Below, one piece after another: positions 12,827 through 26,299 of a stretch of DNA of 64,000 bases. The DNA comes from Escherichia coli (lineage in GTDB: Bacteria; Pseudomonadota; Gammaproteobacteria; Enterobacterales; Enterobacteriaceae). The notes beneath the pieces were generated by a model. The model worked only from the letters and a program-made list of their open reading frames with translations. It was not told the DNA's origin and did no database searches. The stretch lies in NCBI RefSeq assembly GCF_003334405.1, contig NZ_QOWM01000001.1, one strand, 5' to 3'. Both the position numbers and the translations under genes were made by a program. Position 1 is the first letter of the stretch; each line of letters begins with the position of its first letter.

Positions 12827-13768
<942 letters not shown>

Positions 13769-13811
13769 TCGACGGACGATAGATAATTCCTGAGACAATA
13801 GTGTAAAAAAC

Positions 13812-13851
13812 GAGCCGCTGGGGGTGTTTTAAACCCCAGCGGCTTTTTTTT
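13812..13851 (+). terminator. Rho-independent terminator after lrhA
   Basis: gagccgctggggt / accccagcggct stem followed by an 8-T run. Confidence 0.8.
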
Positions 13852-14398
13852 AGTAAAAATCCTTCATCGCATAGTGCAGAACGTACAAAACTGTTCATTT
13901 TTCAACCACCAGAGATTCACGTCCCGAACGCACAAATAATCGCCTGAAAAAAATCACCTGCTACAATGATGTTAAAAAATACGTAAATTTGTTGCTGCGT
14001 TTTTGTTATGGAATGACAAAAGCGTGTCACAGATCAAGAAAATACTCTCTTTTGGGGGGAGGAATCGACACAAATTCCTGTCAAAATAGACCCGTATTTT
14101 TTCCATTGCTTCACAACGGACACGATTCAACAACATCTAATTATCCTGGAGTCGTCAAGGATCTGGGGTGAAAGGGCATTAAATGCTAATGGTGTTGATA
14201 TTATGTAAACTAATGTGAAGAAACTTTTGTTAAAGTTGACAAAAGGTTATAGAAAGGAGTAAAAAACCACATCAATTAGCTGTATAAAAGAATTTCTACA
14301 GTGATTGTAAGGTTTTTTTTATTCCTCCCCATGAATCGATGTGGCGTCCATCTGCCGTGAAGAGCAGTGAATCTGGCGCTACTTTTGATGAGTAAGCA
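13852..14398 (+). promoter_or_regulatory. nuo operon promoter / regulatory region
   Basis: ~550-bp AT-rich non-coding region upstream of nuoA, following the lrhA terminator; individual sites not mapped. Confidence 0.5.
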
Positions 14399-14842
14399 AT
14401 GAGTATGTCAACATCCACTGAAGTCATCGCTCATCACTGGGCATTCGCTATCTTTCTTATCGTTGCCATTGGCCTGTGTTGCCTGATGCTGGTAGGCGGT
14501 TGGTTTTTAGGCGGTCGCGCACGCGCGAGGTCGAAAAACGTGCCGTTTGAATCCGGTATCGACTCGGTCGGCTCCGCCCGCTTACGCCTGTCCGCCAAGT
14601 TTTATCTGGTGGCCATGTTCTTCGTTATCTTCGACGTTGAAGCGCTGTATCTGTTCGCATGGTCAACCTCTATCCGCGAAAGCGGCTGGGTAGGCTTTGT
14701 GGAAGCTGCAATTTTTATTTTTGTGTTACTGGCAGGTCTGGTTTATCTGGTGCGTATTGGCGCGCTGGACTGGACGCCCGCGCGTTCACGCCGCGAGCGT
14801 ATGAACCCGGAAACGAACAGTATCGCTAATCGTCAACGCTAA
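14399..14842 (+). CDS. nuoA: NADH:quinone oxidoreductase subunit A
   Basis: 147-aa membrane protein; first gene of a 13-gene colinear nuo cluster. Confidence 0.95.
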
Positions 14843-14857
14843 CCGCGAGGCATTAAG

Positions 14858-15520
14858 ATGGATTATACGCTCACCCGCATAGATCCCAACGGTGAGAACG
14901 ACCGTTACCCCCTGCAAAAGCAGGAGATCGTAACCGACCCTCTGGAGCAAGAAGTTAACAAAAACGTGTTTATGGGCAAGCTCAATGACATGGTTAACTG
15001 GGGTCGTAAAAACTCAATTTGGCCGTATAACTTCGGTCTTTCCTGCTGTTACGTTGAGATGGTGACTTCGTTTACCGCGGTGCATGACGTGGCGCGTTTT
15101 GGCGCAGAAGTATTGCGTGCTTCGCCGCGTCAGGCTGACCTGATGGTGGTTGCAGGAACCTGCTTTACCAAAATGGCACCGGTTATTCAGCGTCTGTATG
15201 ACCAGATGCTGGAACCAAAATGGGTTATCTCAATGGGTGCCTGTGCCAACTCTGGTGGTATGTACGATATTTATTCCGTTGTGCAGGGCGTCGATAAATT
15301 CATCCCGGTTGATGTGTATATCCCGGGCTGCCCGCCGCGTCCTGAAGCGTACATGCAGGCACTGATGCTGTTGCAGGAATCTATCGGCAAAGAACGTCGT
15401 CCGCTCTCCTGGGTGGTTGGCGATCAGGGCGTTTATCGCGCCAATATGCAATCAGAGCGCGAACGCAAGCGCGGTGAACGCATTGCCGTAACTAACCTGC
15501 GTACACCTGACGAGATTTAA
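14858..15520 (+). CDS. nuoB: NADH:quinone oxidoreductase subunit B (N2 Fe-S cluster)
   Basis: 220 aa; CCY...GxCxxxG...C...P.GCPP cysteine motifs. Confidence 0.95.
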
Positions 15521-15613
15521 TTTGCGCCTGTCGGCAAAGGGATTTTTCTTCGCTTATTCCTAAATCTATTTCGCGAAGCTTACTGCGCCGACAGTCACCA
15601 CGGACCATTTGCA

Positions 15614-17416
15614 ATGGTGAACAATATGACCGACTTAACCGCGCAAGAACCCGCCTGGCAGACCCGCGATCATCTTGATGATCCGGTGATTGGCGAACTG
15701 CGCAACCGTTTTGGGCCGGATGCCTTTACTGTTCAGGCGACTCGCACCGGGGTTCCCGTTGTGTGGATCAAGCGTGAACAATTACTGGAAGTTGGCGATT
15801 TCTTAAAGAAACTGCCGAAACCTTACGTCATGCTGTTTGACTTACACGGCATGGACGAACGTCTGCGCACACACCGCGAAGGGTTACCTGCCGCGGATTT
15901 TTCCGTTTTCTACCATCTGATTTCTATCGATCGTAACCGCGACATCATGCTGAAGGTGGCGCTGGCAGAAAACGACCTGCACGTACCGACCTTCACCAAA
16001 CTGTTCCCGAACGCTAACTGGTATGAGCGTGAAACCTGGGATCTGTTTGGCATTACTTTCGACGGTCACCCGAACCTGCGACGCATCATGATGCCGCAAA
16101 CCTGGAAAGGTCACCCGCTGCGTAAAGATTATCCGGCGCGCGCTACCGAATTCTCGCCGTTTGAGCTGACCAAAGCCAAACAGGATCTGGAGATGGAAGC
16201 CCTGACCTTCAAACCGGAAGAGTGGGGGATGAAGCGCGGCACCGAAAACGAGGACTTCATGTTCCTCAACCTCGGTCCGAACCACCCGTCGGCGCACGGG
16301 GCTTTCCGTATCGTTTTGCAACTCGATGGCGAAGAGATTGTCGACTGCGTACCAGACATCGGTTACCACCACCGTGGTGCGGAGAAAATGGGCGAACGCC
16401 AGTCCTGGCACAGCTACATTCCGTATACTGACCGTATCGAATACCTCGGCGGCTGCGTTAACGAAATGCCTTACGTGCTGGCGGTAGAGAAACTGGCCGG
16501 GATCACCGTGCCGGATCGCGTTAACGTCATTCGCGTTATGCTCTCCGAACTGTTCCGCATCAACAGTCACCTGCTGTATATCTCGACCTTTATTCAGGAC
16601 GTCGGCGCAATGACGCCAGTGTTCTTCGCCTTTACCGATCGTCAGAAAATTTACGATCTGGTGGAAGCAATCACTGGTTTCCGTATGCACCCGGCGTGGT
16701 TCCGTATTGGCGGCGTAGCGCACGACCTGCCGCGCGGCTGGGATCGCCTGCTGCGTGAGTTCCTCGACTGGATGCCGAAACGTCTGGCGTCTTACGAGAA
16801 AGCGGCGCTGCAAAACACCATTCTGAAAGGTCGTTCCCAGGGCGTTGCCGCCTATGGCGCGAAAGAGGCGCTGGAGTGGGGCACCACTGGCGCGGGCCTG
16901 CGTGCTACCGGGATCGACTTCGACGTGCGTAAGGCGCGTCCTTATTCTGGCTATGAAAACTTCGACTTTGAAATCCCGGTGGGTGGTGGCGTTTCTGACT
17001 GCTACACCCGCGTAATGCTTAAAGTGGAAGAGCTGCGCCAGAGTCTGCGCATTCTTGAGCAGTGCCTCAACAACATGCCGGAAGGCCCGTTCAAAGCGGA
17101 TCACCCGCTGACCACGCCGCCGCCGAAAGAGCGCACGCTGCAACATATCGAAACCCTGATCACCCACTTCCTGCAAGTGTCGTGGGGTCCGGTGATGCCT
17201 GCCAATGAATCTTTCCAGATGATTGAGGCGACCAAAGGGATCAACAGTTACTACCTGACCAGCGACGGCAGCACCATGAGTTACCGCACCCGTGTTCGTA
17301 CCCCGAGCTTTGCGCATTTGCAGCAAATTCCGGCGGCGATCCGCGGCAGCCTGGTGTCTGACCTGATTGTTTATCTGGGCAGTATCGATTTTGTTATGTC
17401 AGATGTGGACCGCTAA
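15614..17416 (+). CDS. nuoC: NADH:quinone oxidoreductase fused subunit C/D
   Basis: 600-aa ORF (alternative ATG at 15626 would give 596 aa); NuoC-like N-terminus and NuoD (49-kDa)-like C-terminus in one frame. Confidence 0.93.
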
Positions 17417-17418
17417 TT

Positions 17419-17919
17419 ATGCACGAGAATCAACAACCACAAACCGAGGCTTTTGAGCTGAGTGCGGCAGAGCGTGAAGCGATCGAGCACGAGATGCACC
17501 ACTACGAAGACCCGCGTGCGGCGTCCATTGAAGCGCTGAAAATCGTTCAGAAGCAGCGTGGCTGGGTGCCGGATGGTGCGATCCACGCGATCGCCGATGT
17601 GCTGGGTATTCCGGCAAGCGACGTCGAAGGTGTGGCAACGTTCTACAGTCAGATCTTCCGCCAGCCGGTTGGTCGCCATGTGATCCGTTATTGTGACAGC
17701 GTGGTCTGTCATATCAACGGTTATCAGGGTATTCAGGCGGCGCTCGAGAAAAAGCTGAACATCAAACCAGGGCAAACGACATTTGATGGCCGCTTTACGC
17801 TGCTGCCAACTTGCTGCCTGGGGAACTGTGATAAAGGGCCAAACATGATGATCGATGAGGACACTCACGCGCATCTGACCCCGGAAGCGATCCCTGAACT
17901 GCTGGAGCGGTATAAATGA
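17419..17919 (+). CDS. nuoE: NADH:quinone oxidoreductase subunit E (2Fe-2S)
   Basis: 166 aa; thioredoxin-like 2Fe-2S cysteines (CDSVVCH..., [10 protein letters not shown]). Confidence 0.95.
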
Positions 17920-19253
17920 AAAACATTATCCGTACTCCCGAAACGCATCCGCTGACCTGGCGTCTGCGCGATGACAAACAGCCAGTGTGGCTGGACGAAT
18001 ACCGCAGCAAAAACGGTTACGAAGGCGCGCGTAAGGCGCTGACCGGGCTGTCTCCGGACGAAATCGTTAATCAGGTAAAAGACGCTGGTCTGAAAGGGCG
18101 CGGCGGCGCGGGCTTCTCGACTGGCCTGAAATGGAGCCTGATGCCGAAAGACGAATCCATGAACATCCGTTACCTGCTGTGTAATGCCGATGAAATGGAG
18201 CCGGGCACCTATAAAGACCGCCTGTTGATGGAGCAACTGCCGCACCTGCTGGTGGAAGGTATGCTCATCTCCGCGTTTGCGCTGAAAGCTTACCGTGGCT
18301 ACATCTTCCTGCGTGGCGAATATATCGAAGCGGCAGTTAATCTGCGCCGTGCCATTGCCGAAGCCACCGAAGCGGGTCTGCTTGGCAAAAACATTATGGG
18401 AACAGGTTTCGATTTCGAACTGTTCGTCCATACCGGGGCAGGGCGCTACATCTGCGGGGAAGAAACAGCGTTAATCAACTCCCTGGAAGGACGTCGTGCT
18501 AACCCACGCTCGAAGCCACCCTTCCCGGCAACCTCCGGCGCATGGGGTAAACCGACCTGTGTCAACAACGTCGAAACCCTGTGTAACGTTCCGGCGATCC
18601 TCGCTAACGGCGTGGAGTGGTATCAGAACATCTCGAAAAGTAAAGATGCTGGCACCAAGCTGATGGGCTTCTCCGGTCGGGTGAAAAATCCGGGACTGTG
18701 GGAACTGCCGTTCGGCACCACCGCACGCGAGATCCTCGAAGATTACGCCGGTGGTATGCGTGATGGTCTGAAATTTAAAGCCTGGCAGCCAGGCGGCGCG
18801 GGGACTGACTTCCTGACCGAAGCGCACCTTGATCTGCCGATGGAATTCGAAAGTATCGGTAAAGCGGGCAGCCGTCTGGGTACGGCGCTGGCGATGGCGG
18901 TTGACCATGAGATCAACATGGTGTCGCTGGTGCGTAACCTGGAAGAGTTTTTCGCCCGTGAGTCCTGCGGCTGGTGTACGCCGTGCCGCGACGGTCTGCC
19001 GTGGAGCGTGAAAATTCTGCGTGCGCTGGAGCGTGGTGAAGGTCAGCCGGGCGATATCGAAACACTTGAGCAACTGTGTCGATTCTTAGGCCCGGGTAAA
19101 ACTTTCTGTGCCCACGCACCTGGTGCAGTGGAGCCGTTACAGAGCGCCATCAAATATTTCCGCGAAGAATTTGAGGCGGGAATCAAACAGCCGTTCAGCA
19201 ATACCCATTTGATTAATGGGATTCAGCCGAACCTGCTGAAAGAGCGCTGGTAA
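17916..19253 (+). CDS. nuoF: NADH:quinone oxidoreductase subunit F (FMN/NADH site, 4Fe-4S)
   Basis: 445 aa; overlaps the nuoE stop by 4 nt; glycine-rich GRGGAGF motif and C-terminal CGWCTPC cluster motif. Confidence 0.95.
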
Positions 19254-19305
19254 CCGAATTTCGATTAACGCTCAGTCTCTGACTGAGAAAACTGGAAGCA
19301 TGCTA

Positions 19306-22032
19306 ATGGCTACAATTCATGTAGACGGCAAAGAATACGAGGTCAACGGAGCGGACAACCTGCTGGAAGCTTGTCTGTCTCTGGGCCTTGATATTCCTTA
19401 CTTTTGCTGGCATCCGGCGCTGGGAAGTGTCGGTGCTTGCCGCCAGTGTGCGGTGAAGCAATACCAAAACGCGGAAGACACGCGTGGTCGCCTGGTGATG
19501 TCCTGTATGACACCGGCTTCCGATGGCACCTTTATTTCCATTGACGACGAAGAAGCGAAACAGTTCCGTGAAAGCGTGGTCGAGTGGTTGATGACCAACC
19601 ACCCGCACGACTGTCCGGTATGTGAAGAGGGCGGTAACTGCCATCTTCAGGATATGACTGTGATGACCGGACACAGCTTCCGTCGCTACCGTTTCACCAA
19701 ACGTACCCACCGTAATCAGGATTTGGGGCCATTCATCTCTCACGAAATGAACCGCTGCATCGCCTGCTACCGCTGTGTGCGTTACTACAAAGATTACGCT
19801 GACGGTACAGATCTGGGCGTTTACGGTGCGCACGACAACGTCTACTTCGGTCGCCCGGAAGACGGCACGCTGGAAAGCGAATTTTCCGGTAACCTGGTCG
19901 AAATTTGCCCGACCGGCGTATTTACCGACAAAACGCACTCCGAGCGTTACAACCGTAAATGGGATATGCAGTTTGCGCCGAGCATCTGCCAGCAATGTTC
20001 CATCGGCTGTAACATCAGCCCCGGTGAACGTTACGGCGAACTGCGTCGTATCGAAAACCGTTACAACGGTACGGTAAACCACTACTTCCTCTGCGACCGT
20101 GGTCGTTTCGGTTACGGTTACGTCAACCTGAAGGATCGTCCGCGTCAGCCAGTACAGCGTCGTGGCGATGATTTCATTACCCTCAACGCCGAACAGGCAA
20201 TGCAGGGCGCGGCAGATATTCTGCGTCAGTCGAAGAAAGTGATCGGTATTGGTTCTCCGCGTGCCAGCGTGGAAAGCAACTTTGCGCTGCGTGAACTGGT
20301 GGGCGAAGAAAACTTCTACACCGGTATCGCTCACGGTGAGCAGGAACGTCTGCAACTGGCGCTGAAAGTGCTGCGTGAAGGCGGCATTTATACTCCGGCT
20401 CTGCGCGAAATCGAATCTTACGATGCGGTACTGGTGCTGGGCGAAGACGTTACCCAGACCGGCGCGCGCGTCGCGCTGGCAGTGCGTCAGGCTGTGAAAG
20501 GTAAAGCGCGCGAAATGGCGGCAGCACAGAAAGTGGCTGACTGGCAGATTGCGGCAATCCTCAACATCGGTCAACGTGCGAAGCATCCGCTGTTTGTTAC
20601 CAACGTTGATGACACCCGTCTGGATGATATCGCGGCGTGGACTTACCGCGCACCGGTTGAAGATCAGGCGCGTTTAGGTTTTGCCATCGCCCATGCGCTG
20701 GATAACTCTGCACCAGCGGTTGACGGTATCGAACCTGAGCTGCAAAGCAAAATCGACGTCATCGTGCAGGCACTGGCAGGTGCGAAGAAACCGTTGATTA
20801 TCTCCGGGACGAACGCCGGTAGCTTAGAGGTGATTCAGGCGGCGGCTAACGTCGCGAAAGCCCTGAAAGGTCGCGGCGCTGACGTCGGTATCACCATGAT
20901 TGCCCGTTCCGTCAACAGCATGGGGCTGGGCATTATGGGTGGCGGTTCGCTTGAAGAAGCGTTAACCGAACTGGAAACCGGACGCGCCGACGCGGTGGTG
21001 GTGTTGGAAAACGATCTGCATCGTCACGCTTCTGCTATCCGCGTGAATGCTGCGCTGGCTAAAGCACCGCTGGTGATGGTGGTTGATCATCAACGCACAG
21101 CGATTATGGAAAACGCCCATCTGGTACTTTCTGCTGCCAGCTTTGCTGAAAGCGACGGTACGGTGATCAACAACGAAGGCCGCGCCCAACGTTTCTTCCA
21201 GGTTTACGATCCTGCTTATTACGACAGCAAAACTGTCATGCTGGAAAGCTGGCGCTGGTTACACTCGCTGCACAGCACCCTGCTGAGCCGTGAAGTGGAC
21301 TGGACGCAGCTCGACCATGTGATTGACGCTGTTGTGGCGAAAATCCCGGAACTGGCAGGTATCAAAGATGCTGCGCCGGATGCGACATTCCGTATTCGTG
21401 GGCAGAAACTGGCCCGTGAACCGCACCGTTACAGCGGTCGTACCGCCATGCGCGCCAATATCAGCGTTCATGAGCCGCGTCAGCCGCAGGATATTGACAC
21501 CATGTTCACCTTCTCGATGGAAGGTAACAACCAGCCGACTGCGCACCGTTCGCAAGTGCCGTTTGCCTGGGCGCCGGGCTGGAACTCCCCGCAGGCGTGG
21601 AACAAATTCCAGGACGAAGTGGGCGGCAAACTGCGCTTTGGCGATCCGGGCGTGCGTCTGTTTGAAACCAGCGAAAATGGTCTGGATTACTTCACCAGCG
21701 TACCGGCACGCTTCCAGCCGCAGGACGGGAAATGGCGTATCGCGCCGTATTACCACCTGTTTGGCAGCGATGAATTGTCACAGCGTGCTCCGGTCTTCCA
21801 GAGCCGTATGCCGCAGCCGTACATCAAACTCAACCCAGCGGATGCCGCGAAGTTGGGTGTGAACGCAGGTACACGCGTCTCCTTTAGTTACGATGGCAAC
21901 ACGGTCACGCTGCCGGTTGAAATCGCCGAAGGACTGACGGCAGGGCAGGTGGGCTTGCCGATGGGTATGTCCGGCATTGCTCCGGTGCTGGCTGGCGCGC
22001 ATCTTGAGGATCTCAAGGAGGCACAACAATGA
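19306..22032 (+). CDS. nuoG: NADH:quinone oxidoreductase subunit G
   Basis: ORF 19300..22032; start placed at the second ATG (MATIHVDG...) with better-spaced GGAAG, giving 908 aa; N-terminal Fe-S cysteine clusters. Confidence 0.93.
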
Positions 22033-23006
22033 GTTGGATATCACCGGAACTGATTGAGATCCTGCTGACCATCCTCAAAGCGGTGGTGATCCTGCTGGTG
22101 GTTGTCACCTGCGGGGCATTCATGAGCTTTGGCGAACGTCGCCTGCTGGGTCTGTTCCAGAACCGTTACGGACCTAACCGTGTTGGCTGGGGCGGTTCGC
22201 TCCAGCTGGTTGCGGACATGATCAAAATGTTCTTTAAAGAAGACTGGATCCCGAAATTCTCGGATCGCGTCATCTTTACCCTGGCACCGATGATTGCCTT
22301 TACCTCGCTGCTGCTGGCCTTTGCGATTGTGCCAGTCAGTCCGGGTTGGGTGGTTGCCGACCTGAACATCGGGATTTTGTTCTTCCTGATGATGGCAGGT
22401 CTGGCGGTTTACGCGGTGCTGTTTGCGGGCTGGTCAAGTAACAACAAATACTCGTTGCTGGGTGCGATGCGTGCTTCTGCGCAGACCCTGAGCTACGAAG
22501 TGTTCCTCGGGCTTTCCTTGATGGGCGTGGTGGCGCAGGCCGGTTCATTCAACATGACCGACATCGTCAACAGCCAGGCGCATGTGTGGAACGTTATCCC
22601 GCAATTCTTTGGTTTTATTACCTTTGCCATCGCGGGCGTGGCGGTATGTCACCGTCACCCGTTTGACCAGCCGGAAGCCGAGCAGGAACTGGCGGATGGT
22701 TACCACATTGAATATTCCGGTATGAAGTTCGGTCTGTTCTTCGTGGGTGAGTACATCGGGATTGTGACCATCTCTGCATTGATGGTGACGCTGTTCTTCG
22801 GTGGCTGGCAAGGCCCGTTGTTACCGCCATTCATCTGGTTCGCGCTGAAAACCGCGTTCTTTATGATGATGTTCATTTTGATTCGTGCGTCGTTACCGCG
22901 TCCGCGTTATGACCAGGTAATGTCCTTCGGCTGGAAAATCTGCCTGCCGCTGACGCTGATCAACTTGCTGGTAACGGCGGCTGTCATTCTCTGGCAGGCG
23001 CAATAA
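22029..23006 (+). CDS. nuoH: NADH:quinone oxidoreductase subunit H
   Basis: 325-aa polytopic membrane protein; overlaps the nuoG stop by 4 nt. Confidence 0.95.
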
Positions 23007-23020
23007 GGGGCAATAAGACC

Positions 23021-23563
23021 ATGACCTTAAAAGAATTGTTAGTAGGTTTCGGCACCCAGGTTCGTAGTATCTGGATGATCGGCCTGCACGCGTTCGCCAA
23101 ACGCGAAACGCGAATGTACCCGGAAGAGCCGGTCTATCTGCCGCCCCGTTATCGTGGTCGTATCGTTCTGACCCGCGACCCGGACGGCGAAGAGCGTTGC
23201 GTAGCCTGTAACCTCTGCGCGGTAGCCTGCCCGGTCGGCTGTATCTCGCTGCAAAAAGCAGAAACCAAAGACGGTCGCTGGTACCCGGAATTTTTCCGCA
23301 TCAACTTCTCACGCTGCATTTTCTGTGGTCTGTGCGAAGAAGCCTGTCCGACCACGGCGATTCAGTTAACCCCGGATTTCGAAATGGGGGAATACAAGCG
23401 CCAGGATCTGGTTTACGAGAAAGAGGATCTGCTGATCTCCGGTCCGGGCAAATACCCGGAATATAACTTCTACCGGATGGCAGGTATGGCAATCGACGGC
23501 AAAGATAAGGGCGAAGCAGAGAACGAAGCCAAGCCTATCGACGTCAAGAGCCTGTTACCGTAA
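23021..23563 (+). CDS. nuoI: NADH:quinone oxidoreductase subunit I (2x 4Fe-4S ferredoxin)
   Basis: 180 aa; two CxxCxxCxxxCP ferredoxin motifs. Confidence 0.95.
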
Positions 23564-23574
23564 GGAGAGGGGCA

Positions 23575-24129
23575 ATGGAGTTCGCTTTTTATATCTGTGG
23601 CCTGATAGCCATACTTGCGACCTTGCGAGTGATCACCCATACCAATCCGGTACACGCACTGCTGTACCTGATTATTTCGCTGCTGGCGATTTCCGGGGTG
23701 TTCTTCTCACTGGGCGCTTACTTCGCCGGTGCGCTGGAAATTATCGTCTACGCGGGTGCCATTATGGTGCTGTTCGTGTTCGTGGTGATGATGCTCAACC
23801 TGGGCGGTTCAGAAATCGAACAGGAACGCCAGTGGCTGAAACCGCAGGTGTGGATTGGTCCGGCAATTTTGTCGGCCATCATGCTGGTGGTGATTGTTTA
23901 CGCCATCCTCGGTGTTAACGATCAGGGTATCGACGGTACGCCAATCAGTGCTAAAGCAGTGGGTATTACGCTGTTCGGGCCTTACGTACTGGCGGTGGAA
24001 CTGGCTTCTATGCTGCTGCTCGCAGGTCTGGTTGTGGCCTTCCACGTCGGTCGTGAAGAGCGTGCGGGTGAAGTGCTGAGCAATCGTAAAGACGACAGCG
24101 CGAAAAGAAAAACGGAGGAGCACGCATGA
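23575..24129 (+). CDS. nuoJ: NADH:quinone oxidoreductase subunit J
   Basis: 184-aa hydrophobic protein. Confidence 0.93.
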
Positions 24130-24428
24130 TCCCCTTACAACATGGACTGATCCTCGCGGCAATCTTATTCGTTCTTGGCTTAACCGGTCTGGTTATCCGT
24201 CGCAATCTGCTGTTTATGTTGATTGGTCTGGAAATCATGATTAACGCCTCCGCGCTGGCCTTCGTGGTCGCCGGAAGCTACTGGGGCCAGACCGACGGTC
24301 AGGTGATGTACATTCTCGCCATCAGCCTCGCGGCGGCAGAAGCGAGTATCGGCCTTGCGCTGCTGCTGCAACTTCACCGTCGTCGCCAGAACCTGAACAT
24401 CGATTCAGTAAGTGAGATGCGCGGATGA
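24126..24428 (+). CDS. nuoK: NADH:quinone oxidoreductase subunit K
   Basis: 100-aa three-helix membrane protein; 4-nt overlap with nuoJ. Confidence 0.93.
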
Positions 24429-26266
24429 ACATGCTTGCCTTAACCATTATTTTGCCATTGATTGGCTTCGTCCTGCTGGCATTCTCCCGTGGGCGCTGGT
24501 CTGAAAACGTCTCGGCGATCGTCGGCGTAGGCTCTGTGGGCCTGGCGGCGCTGGTAACCGCCTTTATCGGCGTTGATTTCTTCGCTAACGGCGAGCAGAC
24601 ATACAGCCAGCCGCTGTGGACGTGGATGTCGGTAGGCGACTTTAACATCGGTTTTAACCTGGTGCTGGACGGCCTGTCGCTGACCATGCTCTCGGTGGTC
24701 ACTGGTGTGGGTTTCCTTATTCACATGTACGCCTCCTGGTATATGCGCGGTGAAGAGGGCTACTCTCGCTTCTTCGCTTACACCAACCTGTTCATCGCCA
24801 GCATGGTGGTTCTGGTGCTTGCCGACAACCTGCTGCTGATGTACCTCGGCTGGGAAGGCGTGGGCCTGTGCTCCTATCTGCTGATCGGGTTCTATTACAC
24901 CGATCCGAAGAATGGCGCAGCGGCAATGAAAGCGTTCGTCGTGACCCGTGTGGGTGACGTGTTCCTCGCTTTCGCACTGTTCATTCTTTACAACGAACTG
25001 GGCACCCTGAACTTCCGCGAAATGGTGGAACTGGCACCAGCGCACTTTGCTGACGGCAATAACATGCTGATGTGGGCGACGCTGATGCTGCTGGGCGGTG
25101 CGGTCGGTAAATCTGCGCAGTTGCCGTTGCAGACATGGCTTGCCGACGCGATGGCGGGCCCGACGCCTGTCTCCGCGCTGATCCACGCCGCAACCATGGT
25201 AACCGCGGGTGTCTACCTGATCGCCCGTACCCACGGCCTGTTCCTGATGACGCCGGAAGTTCTGCATCTGGTGGGTATTGTCGGGGCGGTTACGCTGCTG
25301 CTGGCCGGTTTTGCCGCGCTGGTACAGACCGACATCAAACGTGTTCTCGCTTACTCTACCATGAGCCAGATTGGCTACATGTTCCTCGCGCTTGGCGTGC
25401 AGGCATGGGATGCGGCGATTTTCCACTTGATGACCCACGCGTTCTTTAAAGCGCTGCTGTTCCTGGCATCCGGTTCCGTCATTCTGGCCTGCCATCACGA
25501 ACAGAACATCTTCAAGATGGGCGGTCTGCGTAAATCTATTCCGCTGGTTTATCTCTGCTTCCTGGTGGGCGGCGCAGCACTGTCGGCACTACCGCTGGTC
25601 ACTGCGGGCTTCTTCAGTAAGGATGAGATCCTCGCGGGTGCGATGGCGAATGGTCATATCAATCTGATGGTGGCAGGTCTGGTCGGTGCGTTTATGACCT
25701 CGCTCTACACCTTCCGTATGATTTTCATCGTCTTCCACGGAAAAGAACAAATTCACGCTCACGCCGTGAAAGGGGTAACTCACAGCCTGCCGCTGATTGT
25801 GCTGCTGATCCTTTCCACCTTCGTTGGCGCACTGATTGTACCGCCGCTGCAGGGCGTGCTTCCGCAAACGACGGAACTGGCGCACGGCAGCATGTTGACC
25901 CTGGAAATTACCTCTGGCGTGGTCGCGGTGGTCGGCATTCTGCTGGCAGCCTGGCTGTGGCTGGGTAAACGTACTCTGGTGACCTCCATCGCCAACAGTG
26001 CGCCGGGCCGTCTGCTGGGCACCTGGTGGTACAACGCCTGGGGATTTGACTGGCTGTATGACAAAGTGTTCGTCAAGCCGTTCCTGGGTATTGCCTGGTT
26101 GCTGAAACGCGATCCGCTGAACTCAATGATGAACATCCCGGCTGTCCTTTCCCGCTTTGCAGGTAAAGGTCTGCTGTTAAGTGAGAACGGCTATCTGCGC
26201 TGGTATGTGGCATCCATGAGCATCGGTGCGGTCGTGGTGCTGGCACTGTTGATGGTACTGCGTTGA
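24425..26266 (+). CDS. nuoL: NADH:quinone oxidoreductase subunit L (antiporter-like)
   Basis: 613-aa polytopic membrane protein; 4-nt overlap with nuoK. Confidence 0.95.
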
Positions 26267-26299
26267 GTTAAGGATTGTGGGATTGCCCCTGGGCATATA

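Follow-up and report, generated by a model that had tools for sequence, protein, structure and literature searches.

The fused nuoC–nuoD gene of an Escherichia coli K-12-type chromosome, its start codon and a candidate structured RNA in the spacer upstream

The window, by which we mean the whole stretch of 64,000 nucleotides that was analysed, carries the nuo operon on its plus strand, with lrhA located upstream of it. The operon and the gene under study were delimited as follows.

14399..29423, plus strand: nuoA-N operon, 13 genes (A, B, CD, E, F, G, H, I, J, K, L, M, N)
15614..17416, plus strand: nuoC (nuoCD) coding sequence, ATG start, 600 codons and a stop codon; a RefSeq-annotated feature

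Genes of the operon were assigned from the match of each nuo open reading frame (ORF) to its own NCBIfam equivalog, and from the RefSeq annotation of the 99.985%-identical segment of E. coli MG1655. nuoCD is flanked by nuoB (14858-15520) and nuoE (17419-17919), and no separate nuoD is present; the 13 nuo ORFs between 14399 and 29423 thus agree with the count of 13 genes, rather than 14, that had been given in the initial annotation. An operon of 13 nuo genes in which nuoC encodes fused NuoC and NuoD is credited in the literature to Braun et al. 1998 (PMC8831704, PMC9696053, PMC11627005). Two further elements were recorded within the operon. Between nuoF and nuoG, at 19256-19298 (plus strand), lies a match to the Rfam cis-regulatory family 'nuoG RNA' (RF01748; 50.3 bits against a gathering threshold of 33), which was the sole Rfam match in the 64-kb window. 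The nuoL–nuoM spacer (26267-26429, plus strand), a 163-nucleotide gap inside the operon, contains at about 26305-26340 an imperfect palindrome, GTAGGTCGGATAAGCCGCCTTCGCGGTGCATCCGAC, which we take to resemble a REP element.

The nuoCD frame was characterized from the ORF listing and its translation. Both gave a continuous frame with no internal stop codon, and its coordinates coincided exactly with the RefSeq feature, so that the single uninterrupted ORF of about 600 residues originally described was confirmed. The nearest in-frame stop on the 5' side is at 15518, in the region of the nuoB stop codon. Over its 1803 nucleotides nuoCD showed 100% identity to nuoC of E. coli K-12 MG1655, which is annotated as 'NADH-quinone oxidoreductase subunit C/D', and to the gene in many other strains. 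Over positions 1-33416 the window was 99.985% identical to the MG1655 segment yfcE...yfbL, differing by four substitutions and a single-base indel, all outside nuoCD; the window therefore represents a K-12-type E. coli chromosome. The only differences from the MG1655 record NZ_CP032667.1 over this interval were at 1507, 4138, 6840, 10854 and 27479. That at about 6840 is a single-base deletion in the gap of about 80 nucleotides between yfbV and yfbU, while the other four are substitutions, the one at 27479 falling within nuoM. nuoCD was present as a single copy, always chromosomal, in 5424 of 5426 complete E. coli genomes (at least 95% identity and at least 80% coverage). We conclude, with a probability of about 0.99, that the ORF is the ordinary nuoC (nuoCD) of a K-12-type chromosome and encodes one fused NuoC–NuoD polypeptide.

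Domain searches divided the product into two parts joined by a linker. Residues are numbered here from ATG 15614 (600 residues) unless the numbering of the shorter, 596-residue chain is specified.

15761..16147, plus strand: NuoC (30-kDa subunit) domain, residues 50-178; Pfam PF00329 (Complex1_30kDa), 1.7e-42
16142..16258, plus strand: linker, residues ~177-215, the gap between the domain models, about 35-40 residues
16163-16207, plus strand: linker helix that contacts NuoB in the solved structure, helix 180-194 in 596 numbering (PMC8357420)
16256..17413, plus strand: NuoD (49-kDa subunit) domain, residues 215-600; TIGR01962, 1.4e-177

The NuoC family TIGR01961 spanned residues 49-176 in the NCBIfam search, and Pfam PF00346 (Complex1_49kDa) covered residues 329-600 (2.1e-104). 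The best NCBIfam families were all NADH-quinone oxidoreductase subunits. Among them, the equivalog NF008728 ('subunit C/D') scored 1217.7 bits against a cut-off of 840, and its alignment was full length (residues 3-600 against profile positions 2-598 of 598). Chains of solved E. coli complex I identical to the product were found in the PDB under 7p61_C and 9taj_C (600 residues) and under 7awt_D and the 7nyr series, which have 596 residues and aligned to residues 5-600.

The initial annotation had proposed that both halves be aligned with stand-alone NuoC and NuoD proteins, and this comparison was carried out. The N-terminal half matched the stand-alone NuoC chains 8e9g_C (1.2e-25), 8qby_C (4.4e-24) and 2fug_5 (1e-20), all of which stopped near residue 176-178. 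The C-terminal half matched stand-alone NuoD chain 2fug_4, of which residues 23-409 aligned to residues 213-600 (1.2e-103), and likewise the separate NuoD chains 8qby_D and 8e9g_D. We take 2fug to be the complex I of Thermus, and 8qby and 8e9g to come from other bacteria with separate subunits. The reading of the ORF as the 30-kDa NuoC and 49-kDa NuoD subunits in one frame is thus upheld by the Pfam, NCBIfam and PDB chain matches alike. Alignment offsets indicate that stand-alone NuoC chains are longer by about 50 residues at the C-terminus, and stand-alone NuoD chains by about 10-40 residues at the N-terminus; the E. coli linker of about 35-40 residues would replace both of these tails. A large subunit of the [NiFe]-hydrogenase type (HycE/HyfG) was also considered as an identity for the product and was disfavoured by scores of 135 bits to HycE versus 1414 bits to NuoCD chains.

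Conservation of the fused frame was then followed within and beyond the species. Four divergent E. coli strains, 96.5-98.5% identical, differed by 26-64 synonymous and only 2-3 non-synonymous codon changes, and the frame remained open in each. Eight loci from other Enterobacterales, reached through members of the 90%-identity protein cluster (Salmonella, Enterobacter, Intestinirhabdus, Rosenbergiella, the BFo2 symbiont, Klebsiella, Atlantibacter and strain CwR94), all had the order nuoA–nuoB–spacer–fused nuoCD–nuoE, with nuoCD of 599-603 residues as called. The same cluster also holds 364-residue D-alanine–D-alanine ligase sequences, apparently an artefact of database clustering. A DNA-pattern scan of species-representative genomes yielded 93 loci from Enterobacteriaceae-type genera; in 75 of these, counted at species level, the frame was traceable as far as a stop codon, and in 72 of the 75 the fused ORF was intact (595-599 residues from the MTD start). 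The remaining three, from Enterobacter sp. EA-1, Kluyvera genomosp. 3 YDC799 and Citrobacter koseri NCTC10786, had one frameshift each, and NuoCD went on in another frame with no clean split into two genes. Because NuoCD continues there without a new start, these frameshifts are probably indel errors of assembly, or possibly strain-level pseudogenes. Among 69 Enterobacteriaceae sequences, mean identity to E. coli was 93% for the linker (residues 173-211, 596 numbering), compared with 90% for the NuoC core and 96% for the NuoD domain, making the linker as conserved as both. These sequence comparisons show that nuoCD, linker included, is under purifying selection.

Codon usage is uneven along the gene. 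All five TTA leucine codons of nuoCD occur at codons 8, 57, 64, 77 and 91 (15635-15886), where they make up 5 of the 11 leucine codons in codons 1-95, while TTA is absent from the 46 leucine codons in codons 96-595 (post hoc Fisher p = 1e-4); all five are retained in the four divergent E. coli strains. GC3 rises from 0.58 over codons 1-95 to 0.65-0.77 further on. The TTA cluster could represent a stretch of slow codons where the NuoC domain is least conserved. On the minus strand, a long ORF of 480 residues (15884-17326) lies antisense to nuoCD and in codon register with it, and its run of 504 stop-free codons exceeded that of all 2000 codon-order shuffles. A family search with it gave no match, and synonymous changes in nuoCD break its frame in 4 of 4 divergent E. 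coli strains; it was therefore rejected as a gene and is regarded as a shadow ORF.

Translation of nuoCD could begin at either of two in-frame ATG codons, at 15614 (MVNNMTDL..., 600 residues) or at 15626 (MTDL..., 596 residues), the second of which defines an alternative feature.

15626..17416, plus strand: nuoCD from the alternative start, in-frame ATG, MTDLTAQ..., 596 residues

We lean towards ATG 15626 as the true start, rather than the 15614 of RefSeq, a refinement of coordinates only that leaves the fusion unaffected. The sequence GGUGA (15616-15620) sits 5 nucleotides 5' of ATG 15626, and the anti-Shine-Dalgarno duplex with the 16S 3' end computed for this codon was -7.6 kcal/mol, versus -3.2 kcal/mol for ATG 15614. 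The element 'ATGGTGA' (15614-15620) was invariant in nine genera. In three Erwiniaceae-like loci (Rosenbergiella, the BFo2 symbiont and CwR94), the spacing between the two ATG codons is 2 nucleotides longer; this puts the first one out of frame, as the start of a short ORF of 5 codons whose end, ATGA, falls on the MTD start. Since the first ATG is out of frame in these three, the element at 15614-15620 appears to be conserved as nucleotides and not as codons. It is equally consistent with the out-of-frame cases, however, that the upstream ATG is the start in every case, with translational coupling to the second ATG. The first ATG was moreover always in frame in 81 Enterobacteriaceae spacers, though the search pattern fixed that spacing. 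Databases are divided, with 596 residues used in UniProt numbering and several PDB depositions, and 600 residues in RefSeq and other PDB depositions. The solved structures begin at residue 9 and are hence silent on the choice of start, and no N-terminal sequencing of NuoCD was found in the literature searched. The discrepancy of four codons in annotation (600 versus 596) has already produced two residue numberings in the literature, which mixes both: H224, Y273 and D325 fit the 596 numbering only, while E138, E140 and D143 fit the 600 numbering.

The following elements lie between nuoB and ATG 15626.

15521-15613, plus strand: nuoB–nuoCD spacer, 93 nucleotides
15528..15594, plus strand: conserved RNA hairpin in the spacer, from folding and comparative covariation
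15528-15535 with 15587-15594, plus strand: outer stem of the hairpin, CUGUCGGC with GCCGACAG, imperfect
15548-15553 with 15573-15578, plus strand: inner stem of the hairpin, CUUCGC with GCGAAG, 6 base pairs
15595..15620, plus strand: small hairpin, UCACCA (15595-15600) with UGGUGA (15615-15620)

The spacer differed by 0-1 nucleotides in E. coli strains whose nuoCD has 29-68 differences. Among Enterobacteriaceae, all 81 distinct spacers folded into the same long hairpin, with minimum free energies of -13.9 to -28.4 kcal/mol. Sequences of the arms vary widely (those of Mangrovibacter are GCGAAAUGUGGC and GCCACAUUUCG), while the A/U-rich terminal loop is 19 nucleotides here and 18-19 nucleotides across relatives; two lineages have an insertion of about 105-125 nucleotides in this loop. 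The fold of the single sequence was not significant on its own (z = -1.68), and support for the hairpin comes from comparative analysis. When RNAalifold was applied to an ordinary MAFFT alignment, the outer stem was not recovered, its register being displaced by indels, and realignment with a covariance model was required. After this realignment pairing was possible in 93.1% of cells, versus 87.2% after shuffling and 26-48% after sliding of the pairing partners. Changes on both sides were seen in 14 of 24 pairs and in 108 cells, versus 24.9 in shuffles, and none of 500 shuffles reached the observed value, in an alignment that was itself fitted to the structure and so favours it. A search with the covariance model gave a single match in the 64-kb window, and the three Erwiniaceae-like loci gave no match. 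The small hairpin would pair the Shine-Dalgarno-like GGUGA together with part of ATG 15614. Its 5' arm was conserved in 78-81 of 81 sequences, and it has no covariation support because the sequence is invariant and the pattern used for the search included the 3' arm.

Searches for a catalogued counterpart of the spacer element were negative. No Rfam family matched the spacer at gathering thresholds in a scan of the whole window, and a permissive Rfam scan of 15480-15660 returned chance-level matches (E 6-8). A promoter and terminator consensus scan of 13700-17500 gave nothing within the spacer, and no description of a nuoB–nuoC intergenic element was found in the searchable literature. We tentatively suggest that the spacer may be an uncatalogued cis-acting RNA of Enterobacteriaceae, in which both hairpins would determine or control how NuoCD is translated from ATG 15626 and might also form a boundary for mRNA processing or stability; such an element would be analogous to the nuoG RNA motif known from upstream of nuoG. 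The odds of this proposal are somewhat below even. Our best guess for the role of such an RNA is control of NuoCD translation initiation or, alternatively, a stability or processing boundary in the mRNA. A structured spacer could explain how translation of nuoCD is tuned in an operon of 13 genes whose products are required in equal quantities. The start-codon discrepancy and the spacer RNA, both by-products of the analysis, have modest practical value.

An internal start near the junction, such as ATG 16229 (Met206), might also yield a free-standing NuoD in addition to the fused chain. A purine-rich stretch lies 5' of this ATG, with a moderate anti-Shine-Dalgarno duplex of -6.7 kcal/mol, and alignment offsets place the beginning of stand-alone NuoD proteins of other species roughly at Met206. 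The duplex energy is, however, no better than at many positions that are not starts, the linker is an ordered continuous chain in the structures, and NuoC and NuoD expressed separately give no active complex I in E. coli (PMC7050243); we regard an additional free NuoD as very improbable. That the continuous frame reflects an error of sequencing or assembly, in a genome that really has separate nuoC and nuoD genes and a 14-gene operon, has a negligible chance of being correct and is already refuted by population and structural data: its only hints are the three frameshifted assemblies from other species, in none of which is the gene cleanly divided in two at the domain boundary, whereas the same continuous ORF recurs in the 5424 independent complete E. 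coli genomes and the 72 of 75 loci of other species, solved structures show one chain of 596-600 residues that is continuous from 9 to 596, and purifying selection acts on the linker. No evidence speaks against the fusion itself.

In assembled E. coli complex I, NuoCD is a single chain, a conclusion drawn from solved structures with an identical sequence. Residues 9-596 were built as one continuous chain with an ordered linker, which comprises 35 residues and includes the helix 180-194 (596 numbering) touching NuoB (PMC8357420). NuoCD belongs to the connecting (Q) module of this respiratory complex. There the NuoD part contributes H224, Y273 and D325 to the quinone-binding site; these are the quinone-site residues named for it in PMC11627005, and all three are present in the NuoD domain here (596 numbering). 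The NuoC part is free of cofactors and has a role in assembly and stability, and the linker between the two parts includes the helix packed on NuoB. A genetic split into nuoC and nuoD left 4% NADH oxidase activity and no assembled complex, and deletion of the NuoC part or splitting of nuoCD together gave a range of 1-4% activity, again with no assembly (PMC7050243). Complementation in that study was incomplete, and its authors do not fully exclude polar effects of the engineered split. The fusion may have originated when the nuoC stop codon and the intergenic spacer were lost in an ancestor of 'clade E' complex I, and may now be retained because assembly depends on the fused chain. The fusion is already known and textbook material: it is annotated in every RefSeq genome, is seen in cryo-EM and has been genetically tested. 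As a finding it matters very little; its value is as a correct landmark for the K-12 nuo region.

Among known systems, NuoCD of E. coli K-12 (nuoC, b2286; WP_000247879.1; PDB 7p61_C, 7awt_D, 7nyr) is the same protein, identical over 600 residues and 1803 nucleotides, the sole variation being the N-terminus annotated by each source (600 or 596 residues). The initial annotation had called the fusion a known enterobacterial feature. Known it is, from the literature, RefSeq and structures, but 'enterobacterial' is too narrow, as the fusion marks clade E and occurs elsewhere too. Clade E complex I combines fused NuoCD with a long NuoG, of about 894 residues on average in the clade (Spero et al. 2015, PMC4453560), and the NuoG N7 cluster-binding motif is given as CXXCXXXC-(X)27-C (PMC4453560). 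Here NuoCD is fused and NuoG has 908-910 residues, so that in these two features the locus agrees with clade E. Fused NuoCD has also been reported in Bacteroides fragilis (PMC7050243), and a preprint reports D fused to C, or to B and C, in 1374 species, with triple B/C/D fusions occurring in Thermodesulfobacteriota (bioRxiv 10.1101/2025.03.13.643058). Against the NuoB/C/D triple-fusion profile NF009808, the product aligned to positions 220-791 and scored 710.9 bits, below the cut-off of 1156; unlike in those triple fusions, NuoB is here a separate gene (14858-15520). The solved fused chain 'NuoC/D 2' (7q5y_B) has the same domains in the same order (6.3e-101).

HycE, the large subunit of E. coli formate hydrogenlyase (PDB 7z0s_E, 2.5e-38), has the same fusion of a NuoC-like and a NuoD-like part, although its match is far weaker, at the 135 bits versus 1414 bits given above. 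This paralogous fusion binds a [NiFe] site, whereas NuoCD binds quinone, and HycE tolerates being split, whereas NuoCD does not (PMC7050243). Finally, Nqo5 (NuoC) and Nqo4 (NuoD) of Thermus thermophilus (PDB 2fug, chains 5 and 4) have the same two folds and roles, residues 46-155 of Nqo5 corresponding to residues 71-178 of NuoCD (1e-20) and those of Nqo4 to the C-terminal half as aligned above. In T. thermophilus, however, these are two genes and two polypeptides, unlike the single chain of E. coli.
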